Assembly (NCBI GenBank): GCA_965279075.1
Contig: CBDIHI010000009.1
Span: 217,275 to 281,274 of the forward strand
Reading direction: 5' to 3'
DNA: 64,000 nt
Source of the DNA: Burkholderiales bacterium
GTDB lineage: Bacteria > Pseudomonadota > Gammaproteobacteria > Burkholderiales > SG8-39
In this document: positions 4,772-64,000 of the stretch, one piece after another
How positions within the stretch are numbered: the stretch's first letter is position 1
How the letters are laid out: every line of letters starts with the position of its first letter
The notes under the pieces: generated by a model
Seen by the model: the letters and a program-made list of their open reading frames with translations, nothing else
The model's database searches: none
What the model was told of the DNA's origin: nothing
Position numbers and translations under genes: made by a program

Positions 4772-4883
4772 GTCGATCTCCTTGGTACTTGTATCAGCGA
4801 GATTGAAGCCTATGGCCTGGCCCGCCGGCGCGGTAAGGAAAGAATTCACGCCGGTAACGGGCGAAACTGTCGCCGCAGCCCGA

Positions 4884-5642
4884 CTACAGGTGGTACCAAT
4901 GCAGCACGCGGCGCTCGATCGCAAGGAAGCCGCGGTTCAACCCGTAGCCGAGCGCGGCAAGCAGGAAGATCGCGGCATACATGTCGCCCGCCCGCATGGC
5001 GTATTGCATTGTCATGATGTAGTAGCCGATACCGGACGAGCCGGCGATCATCTCTGCGACCACGGTGACGATCAGCGCGAGGGCAAGGCTCACGCGCATG
5101 CCGGCGAGGATGTAGGGCATGCTCGCCGGCAACACCACGCGCAACGCCGTGCGCATCCTGCCGACGCGAAAAGTGCGGGCGGCGTCGAGGGTCACGTGGT
5201 CCACCGCGCGCACGCCGGCGATCGTATTGACGAGCACCGGGAAGAAAGCAGAAAACGCCACAATGAAGATCTTCATGGCGTCGTCCACCCCCAGCAACAG
5301 GATGAGCGGCGGGATGATCGCGGGGACCGGGATCGGACGCAGCAATTCGACCATCGGTTCCAGCGCGGCGTGCACTACACGCACGCTGGCCATGAGCAAC
5401 CCGATGACAAGGGCCGCGCCCACGCCGAGCGCATAGCCCGAAAGCATGCGATAGAGGCTCGAACCGAACACTTCGGGGAGTTCGCCGGAGGCGAGTCCGG
5501 CAACAAGCGCCCGGGCGATCTGCGTGACCGGCGGCCAGTTGGGGCTCGTCACCCAGTAGTACGCCGAGTACTGCCACAGGCCCAGGAGCAGCACGATCAG
5601 GAAGGCGCCGCTCGCCCGCGTGCCTGAGAGCCGCCCGAGCAC
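4884..5642 (-). CDS. ABC transporter permease (NitT/TauT family), second permease of the operon
   Basis: Binding-protein-dependent permease signature with the EAA-type loop (LDAARTFRVGRMRTALRVVLPASMPYILAGMRV). The GTG at 5642 sits just after the upstream stop. The part of the ORF upstream of 5642 overlaps the amidohydrolase gene and looks non-coding. Confidence 0.8.
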   Translation of the reverse strand: MLGRLSGTRASGAFLIVLLLGLWQYSAYYWVTSPNWPPVTQIARALVAGLASGELPEVFGSSLYRMLSGYALGVGAALVIGLLMASVRVVHAALEPMVELLRPIPVPAIIPPLILLLGVDDAMKIFIVAFSAFFPVLVNTIAGVRAVDHVTLDAARTFRVGRMRTALRVVLPASMPYILAGMRVSLALALIVTVVAEMIAGSSGIGYYIMTMQYAMRAGDMYAAIFLLAALGYGLNRGFLAIERRVLHWYHL

Positions 5643-59387: not shown

Positions 59388-60014
59388 ATGCGCGGCACCC
59401 TCTCGAAACTGGTGGTAGTGCTTGCCGCAACGCTTGCGATGCTTCTCGGCGCACGCGCCGCGTTCGCCGACGAGATCGAGATCCGCGACGCGCGGCTGGA
59501 ACAGACCGAGGACGGCCTTGCACTTAGCGCCGACTTCGCGTTCGACTTCAATTCCAGGCTGGAGCAGGCCGTCACCAACGGCGTCCCGCTGTACTTCGTG
59601 CTCGAGTTCGAGCTGACGCAACCCCGTTGGTACTGGTTCGACGAGAAGACGGCCTCGCGCCGCCAGCAGACGCGCCTTTCCTACCACGCCCTGTCGCGGC
59701 ACTTCCGGCTGTCCACCGGGCTGCTGCAGCAGAACTACGCTTCGCTTGCCGAGGCGCTGGCCGTGCTGCGGCGGGTCCGGGGCTGGCAGGTGATGGACAA
59801 GGGCGCGGCGCTCGCGGACGCCCCCTACCAGGCAGCGGTCCGCCTGCGCCTCGACCTCGCGCTGCTGCCCAAGCCCTTCCAGGTCAACGCGCTTACCAGC
59901 CGCGAGTGGCATCTGGAATCGGACTGGAAGAGGTTCACCTGGCGTCCGGCCCCGCCAGCCCCGCCGGCGCCAGCAGCGCCACCGGAGAAGCGCGATGGGG
60001 GCGAGCCAAAATGA
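59388..60014 (+). CDS. DUF4390-like secreted protein
   Basis: ATG at 59388 with signal peptide (LVVVLAATLAMLLGARAAFA). Resembles the DUF4390 proteins usually found between rsmB and ntrY. The C-terminus is Pro/Ala-rich. Its stop overlaps the ntrY ATG (ATGA). Confidence 0.7.
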   Translation: MRGTLSKLVVVLAATLAMLLGARAAFADEIEIRDARLEQTEDGLALSADFAFDFNSRLEQAVTNGVPLYFVLEFELTQPRWYWFDEKTASRRQQTRLSYHALSRHFRLSTGLLQQNYASLAEALAVLRRVRGWQVMDKGAALADAPYQAAVRLRLDLALLPKPFQVNALTSREWHLESDWKRFTWRPAPPAPPAPAAPPEKRDGGEPK

Positions 60015-62131
60015 AGACTCTCCTCATCCTCGGCGCCTCGCTCGCGGGCGTCCTGCTCTTCCTGCTGGCCACGGCCAGCGCGAACACTTCGCTCTTCGCC
60101 CAGCACTATTCCCTGCTCCTCGGCCTGAACGCGGCGCTGGCCGTTGCGTTGCTGGCGCTGGTCGGCTACCAGCTCGCCTCGCTGCGGCGGCGCCTGAAGG
60201 CCCGCGTGTTCGGTTCCCGCCTCACGCTGCGCTTCCTTGTGCTGTTCGCAGCGATCGCAGTGGTGCCCGGCGTGCTTGTCTACACCGTGTCCGTGCAATT
60301 CCTCTCCAAAAGCATCGAGTCCTGGTTCGACGTAAGCGTCGACAGCGCGCTGGAGGGCGGCATCAAGCTCGGCCAGGCCGCGATCGACCAGATGCTCGGC
60401 GAGCTCAACGTCAAGGCGCGAGCGATGGCGGTGGAACTGGCCGACCGGTCGGACAGCCAGCAGGTCGTTGCCCTCAACCGCCTGCGGCAGCAGGCCGGCG
60501 TGGAGGATGCGGTGGTGGTCGCCTCCAACGGTCGCCTGATCGCCAGCGCGAGCGACAACCTTTCCCAGCTGGTGCCCGAGCTTCCCGGTCCCGTGCAATT
60601 GCGCCATGCGCGCAGCAACCGCGGCCTGACCTCCATCGACTCGCTGCCCGGAAAGCCGCTCGGGCTGCGCGCGATCGTCCCGATCTCGGGCTCGGCCTTT
60701 TCCGAGGAGATGCGCTACCTCCAGCTGCGCCATCCCGTGCCGGAGACCCTCGCGAAGAGCGCGGAATCGGTCGAGGCGGTGTATGGCGACTACAAGAAGC
60801 TCGCGCTGTCGCGCCAGGGCCTGAAGCGCAGCTATATCGTCACGCTGACGCTCGCGCTGCTGATGGCGTTGTTCTCGGCCGTGGCGCTCGCGTTCATCCT
60901 GTCGGACCGGATGTCCGCGCCGTTGTCCGAGCTCGCGCAGGCCACCCAGGCGGTCGCGCGCGGCGACTTCTCCAAGCGCATGCCGGTGACCAGCCGCGAC
61001 GAACTCGGCGTTCTGCTCGAGTCCTTCAACAGCATGACGCGCCAGCTCGGCGAGGCGCGGGAGGTGGTCGAATCGAACCGCCTCCAGCTGGAGACCGCCA
61101 AGGCGCGCCTTGAGAACATCCTCGCCAACCTCTCGGCCGGCGTGCTGGTGTTCGATCCCGAGCTGAGGCTCACGATCTCCAACCACGGCGCCGCGGCGAT
61201 CCTCGGCGGCGAACTGGGCGGGCTGACCGGCAAGCCGCTCGAAGCGTGGCAGGGATTCGAGGCCTTCGCCGCGCCCGTGCGCGAGGCGTTCGGGGCGCAC
61301 GGCGAGAAGGGCTGGCAGCTCGAACTGGTCCTCGCGGGCACGGGCAAGACGCTGCTTGCCCGCGGCACACCGCTGCCGTCGGGTTACGTGCTGGTATTCG
61401 ACGACGTAACCCAGCTCATCCAGGCGCAGCGCGCGACGGCGTGGGCCGAGGTCGCCCGGCGCCTTGCGCACGAGATCAAGAACCCGCTCACCCCGATCCA
61501 GCTGTCGGCCGAGCGTATGGAGATGAAGCTGGCCGACAAGCTCGGTGCCGCCGACGCGGATGTGCTGAAGCGCGGCACGCAGACGATCGTGAACCAGGTG
61601 GCCGCGCTGAAGGCGATGGTCGACGACTTCCGCGACTACGCCAGGCTGCCCGCGCCTGTGTTCGCCCGGCTCGACCTGAATGCCCTTGTCACCGAGGTGC
61701 TGTCGATGTACGAAACCACGCCGATCCCGATCCGCCCGAAACTCATGCCCGGGGTCCCCGAGGTGTTCGCCGATTCCGGGCAGATCCGCCAGGTGCTGCA
61801 CAACCTCGTGCAGAACGCGCAGGATGCGCTGGGCGCGGCAAAGTCCCCTGATTCGGCCATCGAGGTGCGCACCGAGCTCGCGGGCGACCGGGTGCGGCTC
61901 GTGGTCAGCGACAACGGCGGTGGCTTCCCGGAGGAGCTCATGGCGCGGATCTTCGAGCCCTACGTGACGACCAAGCCCCGGGGCACGGGCCTTGGCCTCG
62001 CCATCGTGAAGAAGATCGTCGACGAGCACCACGGCGCCATCTCCATCGAGAACCGGCCGCGCAGCGGCGCGTCGGTCACCATCGCCCTGCCGGTGCCGGA
62101 CGGCGGCAACGCTTCGGCCCGGGCGGCCTGA
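60011..62131 (+). CDS. ntrY: NtrY-like sensor histidine kinase (TM-HAMP-PAS-HisKA-HATPase)
   Basis: ATG at 60011 (706 aa). N-terminal TM helices. H-box LAHEIKNPLTPIQLSAERM, characteristic of NtrY. N, G1 and G2 boxes (QVLHNLVQNA, DNGGGF, GTGLGLAIV). Confidence 0.85.
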   Translation: MKTLLILGASLAGVLLFLLATASANTSLFAQHYSLLLGLNAALAVALLALVGYQLASLRRRLKARVFGSRLTLRFLVLFAAIAVVPGVLVYTVSVQFLSKSIESWFDVSVDSALEGGIKLGQAAIDQMLGELNVKARAMAVELADRSDSQQVVALNRLRQQAGVEDAVVVASNGRLIASASDNLSQLVPELPGPVQLRHARSNRGLTSIDSLPGKPLGLRAIVPISGSAFSEEMRYLQLRHPVPETLAKSAESVEAVYGDYKKLALSRQGLKRSYIVTLTLALLMALFSAVALAFILSDRMSAPLSELAQATQAVARGDFSKRMPVTSRDELGVLLESFNSMTRQLGEAREVVESNRLQLETAKARLENILANLSAGVLVFDPELRLTISNHGAAAILGGELGGLTGKPLEAWQGFEAFAAPVREAFGAHGEKGWQLELVLAGTGKTLLARGTPLPSGYVLVFDDVTQLIQAQRATAWAEVARRLAHEIKNPLTPIQLSAERMEMKLADKLGAADADVLKRGTQTIVNQVAALKAMVDDFRDYARLPAPVFARLDLNALVTEVLSMYETTPIPIRPKLMPGVPEVFADSGQIRQVLHNLVQNAQDALGAAKSPDSAIEVRTELAGDRVRLVVSDNGGGFPEELMARIFEPYVTTKPRGTGLGLAIVKKIVDEHHGAISIENRPRSGASVTIALPVPDGGNASARAA

Positions 62132-62138
62132 GGATCCC

Positions 62139-63389
62139 ATGGCGCAGATCCTTGTCGTCGACGACGAAATCGGCATCCGCGAACTCCTGTCGGAGATCCT
62201 CGCCGACGAAGGCCACCAGGTGCTGCTGGCCGAGAATGCGGGCGCCGCGCGCAGGCTGCGGCTCGCGCAGCGGCCCGACCTCGTGCTGCTCGACATCTGG
62301 ATGCCCGACACCGACGGCATCACGCTGCTGAAGGAATGGGCCGCGAACGGACAGCTGACGATGCCCGTGGTCATGATGTCCGGCCACGGGACCATCGAAA
62401 CCGCGGTCGAGGCCACGCGCATCGGGGCGCTCGACTACCTCGAGAAGCCCATCGCATTGCAGCGGCTCCTCGCTACGGTGAAGCGCGCGTTGCGCAACCA
62501 GGACGCGCCCCTCCCCAAGCGCCTGTCCCTTGCCGCGCTGGGCCGGTCGGCGGCGCTCTCGGACCTCAAGAAGCGCCTCGCGCAGCTGGCGCAGGTCGGT
62601 ACGCCGCTGATGCTGAGAGGGGAGCGTGGCATGCAGGCCGAGATGTTCGTGCGCCACCTCCTCGCGGCGGGCGCGCCTTTCGTGACCGGTCTAGAGGCAC
62701 TGAACGAGCCGCCTTCCGACGTGCTCACGCGCGCCGCGGGAGGGATCCTGTTCGTGTCTGACCTCGCGCACCTGTCGCGCAGCGAGCAGAAGAACCTCGA
62801 GTTCCTGCTGGCGCGAGTCGAGAAGCACAAGGCGCGCGTGGTGTCCTTCTCACTGGTCGAGCCGCAGCGCCTCGTTGCCGAGCACGAGTTCGACGCGGAC
62901 CTCGCGATGCGCCTTTCCGAGCTCGTCGTCGCGCTGCCGGCAGTGCGCGAATTCGCCGAGGAGGTGCCCGACATCGCAGCGCTGGCGCTTGCCCAGCTGG
63001 TGGAAGGGCGCGTGTGCCCGCCCCGACGGTTCTCCACCGGCGCCCTGAACGCACTGCGCCTGCATGCCTGGCCGGGCAACCTCGCGCAGCTCGACGCCGT
63101 AGTGAAGAGCGCCGCGCTGACCGCGCTCGAAGAGGAAATCCAGCTGGCCGACGTCGAGCGCGTGCTTTCAGCGCACTCTGCCCCCTCGTCCTCCGTCGGC
63201 GACCTGCCGCTGGACCAGCCTTACCGCGAGACGCGAGACGCCTTCGAGCGGTTGTATTTCGAGTACCAGCTCGCGCGCGAGAACGGCAGCATGTCGAAGG
63301 TCGCCGAGAAGACCGGCCTGGAACGCACGCACCTCTATCGCAAGCTGAAGGCGCTCGGCCTGCCGGTGGGCCGGCGCGAGGAAAGCTGA
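62139..63389 (+). CDS. ntrX: NtrX-like response regulator (REC + degenerate AAA+ core + Fis-type HTH)
   Basis: REC domain (ILVVDDE...LVLLDIWMPDTDG...EKP). The central domain is homologous to sigma54 activators but has no Walker A lysine (GERGMQAE), has Walker B as FVSDL, and has the GAFTGA region deleted. C-terminal HTH SMSKVAEKTGLERTHLYRKLKALG. Confidence 0.8.
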   Translation: MAQILVVDDEIGIRELLSEILADEGHQVLLAENAGAARRLRLAQRPDLVLLDIWMPDTDGITLLKEWAANGQLTMPVVMMSGHGTIETAVEATRIGALDYLEKPIALQRLLATVKRALRNQDAPLPKRLSLAALGRSAALSDLKKRLAQLAQVGTPLMLRGERGMQAEMFVRHLLAAGAPFVTGLEALNEPPSDVLTRAAGGILFVSDLAHLSRSEQKNLEFLLARVEKHKARVVSFSLVEPQRLVAEHEFDADLAMRLSELVVALPAVREFAEEVPDIAALALAQLVEGRVCPPRRFSTGALNALRLHAWPGNLAQLDAVVKSAALTALEEEIQLADVERVLSAHSAPSSSVGDLPLDQPYRETRDAFERLYFEYQLARENGSMSKVAEKTGLERTHLYRKLKALGLPVGRREES

Positions 63390-63396
63390 GGCGCGC

Positions 63397-63777
63397 GTGG
63401 GGGCGCGCATCCCCGTACACGTCGTGACCGGCCCGCGCGGCTCCGGCAAGACAGCGTTGATCGCGCGGTTCTGTGCTGGGCGCGACGACTGGCTCGGGCT
63501 GGTGGATGCGCTCCCGGACGAACCTCCCGCCGGCCTGAGGGCCTTCTCCGCCGGTTGCCCGTGCTGCACGGGCAAGGTCGTGCTGCAGGTTTCGCTGGCG
63601 CGCGGCCTGCGCGAGAGCCGCGCCACGCGCGCCTTTGTCGAGCTGCGCGATCCGGCGCACCGGGCGACGCTGGAAAGGCTGCTCGCCGAGTTGCCGCTCA
63701 GCCTGTCGGTCGTGCCGGGCCGCCCGATCGAGTTGCCCGCCGACGCGTCGCTCCAGGCGGCCACGCTGGAGGGGTAG
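63397..63777 (+). CDS. Miniature COG0523/CobW-like P-loop protein (126 aa) with a CxCC motif
   Basis: GTG at 63397 with GAGG 6 nt upstream. Third-position GC is high throughout. P-loop GPRGSGKT, GCPCCTGK (compare the GCICC metal motif of COG0523) and FVELRDPAH (compare IETTGLADP). There is no NKxD motif and no CobW C-terminal domain. Confidence 0.6.
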   Translation: MGARIPVHVVTGPRGSGKTALIARFCAGRDDWLGLVDALPDEPPAGLRAFSAGCPCCTGKVVLQVSLARGLRESRATRAFVELRDPAHRATLERLLAELPLSLSVVPGRPIELPADASLQAATLEG

Positions 63778-63844
63778 CGCCGAGGGCGTTGGCAGCCGGA
63801 GCGACGCTCGCTATCATTGCTGCGTCCGCGAAGAACCCCGAACC

Positions 63845-64000
63845 ATGCTGCTCCAGTTCGTCATCCTCTACCTGATCGTGTCGGTCGGCATCGGCCTGTA
63901 CGCCGCGACCAAGGTCAAGAACTCCGCCGACTTCGTGGTGGCTGGCCGCCATCTGCCGCTGCCCTTCATCGTCGCCACGGTGTTCGCCACCTGGTTCGGC
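63845..64000 (+). CDS. Sodium:solute symporter (SSS) family transporter, N-terminal fragment (runs off the window)
   Basis: ATG at 63845. MLLQFVILYLIVSVGIGLYAATKVKNSADFVVAGRHLPLPFIVATVFATWFG is a typical SSS N-terminus. Confidence 0.7.
   Translation, partial: MLLQFVILYLIVSVGIGLYAATKVKNSADFVVAGRHLPLPFIVATVFATWFG

Follow-up and report, generated by a model that had tools for sequence, protein, structure and literature searches.

The COG0523 chaperones are understood as GTP-driven machines whose CxCC motif is thought to be coupled both to the state of the nucleotide and to a C-terminal domain for the binding of clients. The G3E proteins are defined by a glutamate in Walker B together with an NKxD motif, and COG0523 by a CxCC motif and a P-loop GTPase domain (Haas et al. 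2009, PMC2770081). In ZigA all three cysteines of CxCC are ligands of Zn(II), and the site, tetrahedral and of the S3(N/O) type, is unchanged with or without nucleotide (PMC11052692). Residue E113 of ZigA, which matches the metal ligand C127 of HypB in position, is predicted to be directed into the CxCC loop, and the variant E113A has a Zn affinity like the wild type (PMC11052692); this position therefore need not be a ligand. In the betaproteobacterium Cupriavidus metallidurans two COG0523 proteins belong to the Zur regulon (PMC11340326). A degenerate relative is also described: Rv0106 is repressed by Zur, misses both GTPase motifs and carries a CxSC variant of the cysteine motif (Haas et al. 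2009, PMC2770081).

The second system which matters here is the PlrSR cluster of Bordetella with the gene order rsmB-plrP-plrS-plrR-trkA-trkH, an internal promoter in the 3' end of plrS, and PlrP as third component of PlrSR (PMC13001219). The genes trkAH follow plrSR in only about a quarter of the close homologs, and a gene of the type described below is not mentioned in that paper (PMC13001219).

Here we describe a gene for a 126-aa protein (mini gene and mini protein) in a 64-kb stretch of DNA from a Burkholderiales bacterium, in the following called the window. It stands at the 3' end of an ntrYX (plrSR-like) cluster and encodes a new, strongly reduced variant of COG0523. Its relatives have repeatedly lost parts of the GTPase and kept the cysteine motif, which suggests a GTP-independent metal-binding protein.

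A short COG0523-derived gene behind ntrX

The features of the locus are collected in Table 1.

Table 1 Features of the mini gene and of its neighbours (positions counted from the first nucleotide of the window)
Feature	Position	Strand	Remarks
DUF4390/plrP-like gene	59388..60014	+	208 aa; first ATG consistent with orthologs
ntrY/plrS-like sensor histidine kinase gene	60011..62131	+	706 aa; from ortholog domains and synteny
ntrX/plrR-like response regulator gene	62139..63389	+	receiver, degenerate sigma-54 AAA+, Fis-type HTH (Pfam, NCBIfam); TGA at 63387-63389
GAGG, Shine-Dalgarno-like	63388..63391	+	overlaps ntrX stop codon; 5 nt ahead of GTG
Mini gene, COG0523-derived	63397..63777	+	126 aa; GTG start at 63397, stop codon 63775-63777; predicted last cistron of ntrYX unit
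Walker A/P-loop GPRGSGKT	63430..63453	+	residues 12-19; intact here, dispensable across the family
CPCC, CxCC metal-binding motif (C54-P55-C56-C57)	63556..63567	+	from alignments
Degenerate Walker B/switch II FVELRDPAH	63634..63660	+	residues 80-88; from alignments
Sigma-70-like promoter TTGGCA, 17 nt, TATCAT	63789..63817	+	for downstream SSF gene
Sodium:solute symporter (SSF) gene, 5' end	63845..64000	+	cut by window end

The sequence-only reading of this DNA had described an ORF behind the ntrX stop codon with a GAGG of its own and a coding-like third-position GC. Both observations stand. Only 7 nt lie between ntrX and the mini gene, and the GC content by codon position (0.75/0.57/0.91) matches the pattern of ntrX (0.75/0.43/0.89). 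In addition to the GAGG, a second GAGGA is found within the final ntrX codons (63378-63382). The junction with ntrX, GAGGAAGGCTGA, recurs in most of 12 orthologous loci, as does a start located two to three codons ahead of the RIPVH strand. Two long ORFs on the minus strand over the mini gene (62725..63660 and 63168..63764) were set aside as artefacts of the high GC content, as the homologs and the GC by codon position back the plus-strand frame. The predicted product has a mass of 13.2 kDa and a pI of 8.5, lacks transmembrane or hydrophobic segments, and contains four cysteines (26, 54, 56, 57) and two histidines (8, 88).

A COG0523/CobW origin, also claimed in that reading, is supported by profile searches. 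The Pfam cobW profile (PF02492) scores 29.3 bits (gathering score 20.7, E=7.8e-7), with residues 6-82 aligned to profile positions 1-90 of 180. A profile of the mini family run against 1.8 billion proteins finds full-length COG0523 proteins (300-360 aa) at E=1e-13 to 1e-7, where about positions 2-113 of the profile align with about residues 5-128 of the targets. At the level of sequence, the motif string GPRGSGKT...CPCC...FVELRDPAH resembles COG0523 beyond chance, and its parts follow each other in the order which the reading had given. It was likewise right about the absence of NKxD and of the C-terminal domain, since full-length proteins align only up to about their residue 128 and the CobW_C domain (PF07683) has no match in the mini protein, and about the size of roughly one third (126 aa versus 300-390 aa in full-length members). 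Two further statements hold in part. Spacer segments were said to be missing, and about 11-16 residues of switch I are indeed absent in comparison to the nearest full-length relatives, the NEFG motif being replaced by a short variable segment; however, no shortening is seen from CxCC to Walker B. The Walker B/switch II-like motif retains the glutamate (E82) of the G3E proteins, but an aspartate (D85) stands where the G3 glycine would be, in place of the IEPTG of full-length relatives.

The first homolog search gave 59 proteins with 50-100 % identity, nearly all of them 120-136 aa long, and further searches enlarged the family to at least 170 different sequences with lengths of 78-136 aa. All carriers seen so far are metagenomes or metagenome-assembled genomes (MAGs) labelled Burkholderiales, Betaproteobacteria or similar. 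Relatives found by cluster look-up and in MAGs are annotated as 'hypothetical protein', 'GTP-binding protein' or 'G3E family GTPase' only. Within the window's clade the pairwise dN/dS is 0.14-0.33, and within each clade start, stop and length of the gene are constant. The mini gene is a real and conserved gene under purifying selection, although it evolves faster than its neighbours: in orthologous loci the mini protein is 60-67 % identical versus 83-89 % for NtrX.

With the family alignment AlphaFold2 predicts a compact alpha/beta domain for the 126-aa protein (pLDDT 92.2, pTM 0.88) with the element order beta1, alpha1, beta2, beta3, CPCC loop, alpha2, beta4, alpha3 and beta5. The lowest confidence (pLDDT 79) is found for residues 51-60, the block of the CPCC loop. 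For a 110-aa form without Walker A the predicted topology is the same (pLDDT 89.8, pTM 0.84). Foldseek searches of the PDB with both models return weak matches only (E>=5e-3, TM about 0.5), with UreG, YjiA, MeaB and IcmF among the top ones and G3E GTPases mingled with generic P-loop kinases and designed P-loop folds. For these models the result supports the fold class only. Run against PDB sequences, the family profile finds nothing significant, chance matches having E about 0.4 (TFIIH SSL1). NCBIfam holds no family for the mini protein, which reaches 13.5 bits with the profile for CobW proper (TIGR02475; cut-off 332), and Pfam gives nothing beyond partial cobW matches, also for the forms of 78-117 aa. 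No paper combining NtrYX and COG0523 was found, and none which describes the mini protein, for which a curated family or a solved structure was not found either, in line with the view that a protein of this kind has no described function.

Erosion of the GTPase and constraint on the cysteine loop

Measured against the published definitions (PMC2770081), the mini protein gives a mixed picture. The Walker A pattern GxxxxGK[ST] of the G3E proteins is present, ExxG and NKxD are absent; the CxCC of COG0523 is present, a complete GTPase domain and CobW_C are absent. As the definitions of both groups thus do not apply in full, the mini protein belongs to the family by descent but not as a working member. 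Compared to the nearest full-length proteins, which read ..WAVLVNEFG..GGCxCC..LFIEPTGLGHP..NKxD..CobW_C, every member of the mini family lacks the NEFG switch I, the G3 glycine and NKxD, and likewise the remainder of the G-domain as well as the domain at the C-terminus. Since switch I, the G3 glycine, NKxD, the second half of the G-domain and CobW_C are missing, a GTP-driven chaperone action is not to be expected.

The P-loop is part of this erosion. Walker A is present in 82 of 170 members and absent in the other 88, and on a rough neighbor-joining tree of the 170 members its gain and loss require at least 14 changes of state. Some members show a deletion of two residues in the P-loop, or the whole alpha1 is gone, and the remainder of the protein is kept. 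In the close homologs which form the window's own clade Walker A is intact more often (42/59), and therefore binding of a nucleotide or phosphate may still matter in the protein of the window.

Stop-to-stop translations and alignments reveal a series of reduction at one and the same slot, with forms of 204, 183, about 126, 110, 85 and 78 aa. The two longest follow trkH and consist of a G-domain only in which Walker A is kept and NKxD is degenerate; the 183-aa form is a populous family in its own right. The forms of about 110 aa have neither Walker A nor the beta3/switch I segment, and in those of about 80-88 aa the helix alpha1 is deleted. Forms of about 78-85 aa are found directly after ntrX. 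The forms of 78-88 aa, too, are intact ORFs with coupled starts. The full-length relatives examined are located elsewhere, beside Zur, near CbiM/MOSC or on a short contig. A split gene, with a partner encoding the missing half, was considered and rejected: neither the 64-kb window nor the adjacent genes in any locus contain another COG0523-like sequence.

What remains constant is the cysteine loop. CPCC is invariant in the family alignments A1, A3 and A4, the sole exception seen being GGPCC in the close homolog P0017. In the set of 170 members, which was filtered for C.CC, C54, C56 and C57 are conserved to 100 % and P55 to 99 %. Further residues are nearly as constant in these members: L67 and R72 (100 %), R69 (99 %), H88 and L96 (98 %), P100 (95 %) as well as W32, Q64 and R78 (92 % each). 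E82 (82 %) and D85 (77 %) follow at a distance. Common to the mini protein and its nearest full-length relatives are H8, W32, R69, R72, R78 and H88.

H88 deserves attention because of its position. In alignments its counterpart is the histidine of IEPTGLGHP among the nearest full-length relatives and the aspartate of TGMADP in YjiA, and its offset from the Walker B glutamate (E+6) is the same as that of E113 from E107 in ZigA (VIESTGISEP). In two loci (L080 and L081) an aspartate replaces it. By analogy, H88 is proposed as the fourth metal ligand, which would complete a Cys3-His site.

A link to zinc is given by one near full-length relative (P0352, ...IEPSGLGHP...), the only relative of full-length type examined for this context, which overlaps by 4 nt with a Fur-family gene whose best NCBIfam match is Zur (143 bits, below the cut-off of 167 bits).

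Chromosomal slot and candidate functions

A narrow-pattern scan of contigs gave seven loci and a wider scan of metagenomes 63. All copies examined stand in one slot with the order rsmB, DUF4390 (plrP), ntrY, ntrX, an optional trkA-trkH pair, the mini gene and an optional SSF gene, with the convergent DUF423, Thx and metH on the 3' side. In the window's clade (about 54-94 % identity among the loci examined) the order rsmB, DUF4390, ntrY, ntrX, mini gene, SSF gene and convergent DUF423 and metH is invariant. The ATG of ntrY overlaps the DUF4390 stop codon as ATGA, and the ntrY ortholog carries the domains NtrY_N, HAMP, PAS, HisKA and HATPase. The best NCBIfam match of the ntrX-like gene is NtrX; its 232.7 bits stay under the equivalog cut-off (600). 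Downstream of the mini gene the scan of the spacer to the SSF gene detected one promoter site versus 0.0 expected; the elements cgTTGGCA and TAT(G/C)AT are kept in 12/12 aligned intergenic regions and the spacer between them aligns without gaps. The beginning of the SSF protein is 94-100 % identical in orthologous loci, and a full ortholog matches PF00474 and TIGR00813. Because of this conserved promoter on its 3' side, the mini gene is taken to close the upstream unit as its last cistron. An intrinsic terminator-like site was not found after it. The protein is probably translated as the last ntrY-ntrX cistron from a ribosome-binding site on or beside the ntrX stop codon, and at this 3' end of the ntrYX(-trkAH) unit its expression would depend on translational coupling. 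A scan of the whole window with Rfam found nothing, and thus there is no riboswitch in it; cob genes are not present near the mini gene in the loci examined.

The gene directly upstream differs between loci. In a hand tally of the 59 loci with an identifiable upstream gene it is ntrX in 27 and trkH in 32. In the trkH type the GTG of the mini gene usually overlaps the trkH stop codon (GTGA), and ntrX and trkA lie further upstream. The window itself contains neither trkH nor trkAH. Wherever a locus extends far enough, ntrYX is present within 3.5 kb upstream. On the other side metH follows convergently in most loci which extend far enough, with a gap of only 1 nt in L017-L019. What is conserved is the chromosomal slot rather than the adjacency to ntrX.

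The sequence-only reading had suggested a functional mini protein, for instance a metal- or nucleotide-sensing accessory of NtrYX. Of this proposal the functional protein survives, on account of 59 close and at least 170 total relatives, the dN/dS values and the confidently predicted fold. The mini gene follows ntrX in 27 of the 59 metagenome loci, but as it follows trkH in the other 32, it is probably not a specific partner of ntrX, and the idea of an NtrYX accessory is weakened. The linkage to ntrYX may be historical, since the block from def to metH is a conserved synteny in these Betaproteobacteria. A full-length COG0523 gene at this slot, named there as counter-evidence, was not found; the longest forms are those of 183 and 204 aa, restricted to the G-domain and located after trkH. 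Nucleotide sensing fares worse: half of the family is without Walker A and all members are without G2, the G3 glycine and G4, and for the family as a whole it is unlikely, judged from the motifs. The metal option is the one which the conservation pattern favours.

Among the readings considered, the one to which we give about an even chance is that the mini protein is a nucleotide-independent, Cys3-His metal-binding relic of a COG0523 chaperone, the metal being probably zinc. It would be a small cytosolic protein whose ancestor was a zinc-type (CobW/ZigA-like) metallochaperone and of whose G-domain the N-terminal half is left. The GTPase cycle would have been lost, with a P-loop still intact in the copy of the window and decayed in about half of the family, and selection would maintain the CPCC loop, which is exposed, His88, with which the following helix begins, and the Arg-rich helix (R69, R72, R78). 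The three cysteines and His88 would form a tetrahedral site which binds its metal, most likely Zn(II), without nucleotide; Co, Ni or Cu could take its place. The protein may then act as a small module for holding and handing off metal, or as a metal-dependent interaction module.

The decay of a non-functional COG0523 remnant, which appears as an ORF only through high GC, would agree with the loss of motifs, the shrinking length across lineages and the faster evolution relative to the neighbours. However, the low dN/dS, the constant start, stop and length within each clade, the invariant core of residues in at least 170 sequences, the confident compact folds predicted for long and reduced forms alike and the coupled starts of the intact 78-88 aa ORFs all speak against it, and a dead remnant is effectively excluded. 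The intact P-loop of the window protein and of 42/59 close homologs, together with the G3E glutamate E82, could also be read as a small switch which binds GTP or ATP and regulates NtrX or NtrY, in accordance with the tight coupling of the gene to ntrX and with ntrYX upstream in every sufficiently long locus. Such a switch would have to work without G2 (NEFG), the G3 glycine and G4 (NKxD), which are missing from all members, and the 88 members without Walker A, some of them by deletion of the loop or of alpha1, keep the remaining protein. Moreover, trkH instead of ntrX precedes the gene in 32 of the 59 tallied loci. We regard a nucleotide switch as quite improbable.

NtrYX systems are linked to oxygen and redox sensing, and the invariant cysteines lie in a loop of lower model confidence within an NtrYX/PlrSR cluster. 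The CPCC motif could thus serve as a redox or thiol switch which senses oxidants or oxygen via a disulfide or via metal release and feeds into NtrYX/PlrSR or Trk. Metal binding as the primary chemistry is favoured by the near-invariant histidine, which stands where a metal ligand is known, by the metallochaperone ancestry and by the link of one full-length relative to Zur, and the redox or thiol switch appears unlikely. A Zn-thiolate redox switch is compatible with, and not exclusive of, the metal-binding explanation. Among the G3E relatives, MeaB and CobW assist B12 enzymes or the synthesis of B12, and metH, for a zinc- and B12-dependent enzyme, stands convergently downstream. A dedicated helper, either as metal chaperone of MetH or as cytosolic accessory of TrkAH, would fit the small distance to metH in L017-L019 and the overlap with the trkH stop in most trkH-type loci. 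The evidence from position is weakened by the fact that adjacency to metH or trk carries little information within a conserved synteny from def to metH. Furthermore, metH is on the opposite strand with a DUF423, Thx or SSF gene in between, and in the window's clade the mini gene persists without trkAH at the locus; a helper of this kind is rather unlikely.

One lineage has carried out a natural experiment at one slot, in which the C-terminal domain, the half responsible for base recognition, both switches and repeatedly also the P-loop were shed, and CxCC together with one histidine stayed under strong constraint. A confirmed metal site would make the mini protein the minimal autonomous metal-binding unit of the COG0523 family and a tractable model of 8-13 kDa for CxCC chemistry (the fourth ligand of ZigA is still unknown). 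The mini gene is also an unnoticed conserved member of the PlrSR/NtrYX cluster, which is important for the persistence of Bordetella, with relatives derived so far from metagenomes only. A bolder extension, to which we assign a slim chance, would combine both aspects: an unrecognised class of nucleotide-independent CxCC-His mini-metalloproteins, derived from a Zur-type COG0523 GTPase which was eroded in steps to as little as about 78 aa, might act alongside PlrP as cytosolic metal- or redox-sensing input of PlrSR/NtrYX(-TrkAH) and link the zinc or redox status to the activity of NtrX or Trk.

Comparison with known systems

The closest known proteins are the zinc metallochaperone GTPases of COG0523, such as ZigA, ZagA/YciC, YjiA, YeiR, Zng1 and CobW2/CobW3 of Cupriavidus. 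With them the mini protein shares beta1, the P-loop, alpha1, beta2, the CxCC loop, alpha2, the Walker B strand and alpha3, with CxCC at the same place and the G3E glutamate in Walker B. In contrast, the mini family has about one third of their length, lacks NEFG, the G3 glycine, NKxD and CobW_C, and its genes close the ntrYX(-trkAH) cluster on the 3' side instead of standing in a Zur-type context. A partial precedent for such a descendant is the Rv0106 type, which is without Walker A and thought to lack GTPase activity (PMC2770081). Compared by description only, the mini family differs from it by its size of 78-136 aa and by the intact CPCC.

The G3E nickel chaperones HypB and UreG share the fold class, a cysteine motif after beta3 and a ligand just after G3, and H88 of the mini protein occupies the position of this ligand in HypB (C127). 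However, both are complete GTPases which dimerise around the metal and work with the partners HypA/SlyD or UreE/F/H, whereas the mini protein has neither these partners nor their motifs (CH, CPH). Within the gene cluster the closest counterpart is PlrP, also a small non-kinase, non-regulator component encoded in the same rsmB-plrP-plrS-plrR(-trkAH) arrangement (PMC13001219). PlrP is periplasmic, its gene lies 5' of the kinase gene, and its co-occurrence with ntrY homologs is near-universal (PMC13001219). In contrast, the mini protein is predicted to be cytosolic, its gene lies at the 3' end, follows trkH as often as ntrX, and comes from metagenomes and MAGs only.

Reduced and full-length relatives

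A separate, populous COG0523-like family of about 183 aa (one member has 204 aa) consists of the G-domain alone, with an intact Walker A motif and a degenerate NKxD motif. For P0091 and P0118, the two members with an examined contig, the gene comes immediately 3' of trkH. These proteins look like intermediates of the series of reduced forms that leads to the mini protein. Nearest to the mini proteins is the IEPSGLGHP subfamily. One of its members, a COG0523 protein of 309 aa, carries CMGC, not CxCC; at the locus L087 its gene overlaps a Zur-like gene by 4 nt.

Location of the features in the window and in the compared loci
Feature	Location	Strand	Remarks
Antisense ORF, 311 aa	window 62725-63660	-	overlaps ntrX and mini gene
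Antisense ORF, 198 aa	window 63168-63764	-	overlaps ntrX and mini gene
ATGA overlap	window 60011-60014		ntrY ATG on stop of DUF4390 (plrP-like) gene
Sigma-70-like promoter	window 63789-63817		cgTTGGCA / 17 nt / TAT(G/C)AT; between mini gene and SSF symporter gene
Zur-like/309-aa COG0523 gene pair	L087 4679-6069		also L088, L089
G-domain-only family (~183 aa, 204 aa)	L084 253-804; L086 1570-2184		P0091, P0118, P0290-P0341
78-aa sub-lineage	L080 and L081, about 4953-5189		His88 -> Asp
Divergent branch, 126-132 aa	L075-L078, L082, about 4821-5330
TrkH-family tandem genes	L013 3-671 and 732-2189

Variants of the mini gene and its neighbours

After ntrX, a sub-lineage has Asp at the position of the nearly invariant His88 (PDRED vs PDREH). 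There is also a divergent branch with the sequence MTIVTLVHGGSGAAREAAIAAL...IAPGCPCCTGKLAMRVILNRTLRKNPDRIYLSLAHPDHL..., in which the upstream ntrYX pair is much more distant (ntrY 47% identical) and roughly 2 kb of other sequence lie between the mini gene and metH. In most of the loci where the mini gene follows trkH, the gene of the small ribosomal protein Thx stands between DUF423 and metH, giving a conserved convergent block beside the mini gene (downstream regions of L013 and L030-L069). Upstream of the mini gene in L013, a tandem pair of TrkH-family genes replaces trkA-trkH.

Both hexamers of the promoter downstream of the mini gene are kept in all of the 12 aligned loci and the flanking spacer is variable; the promoter lies in the window and in the intergenic regions of L005-L011, L020-L024 and L035. 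The two antisense frames were rejected as genes, being rich in Arg, Ala, Gly and Pro as is typical of such frames in high-GC DNA.

The ntrYX pair of the window

Against the NtrX equivalog, the NtrX-like regulator (62139-63389) reaches only 232.7 bits at a cut-off of 600, and its AAA+ domain is a degenerate Sigma54_activ_2. The overlap between the DUF4390 gene and ntrY is the same 4-bp overlap as that of plrP and plrS in Bordetella (PMC13001219).
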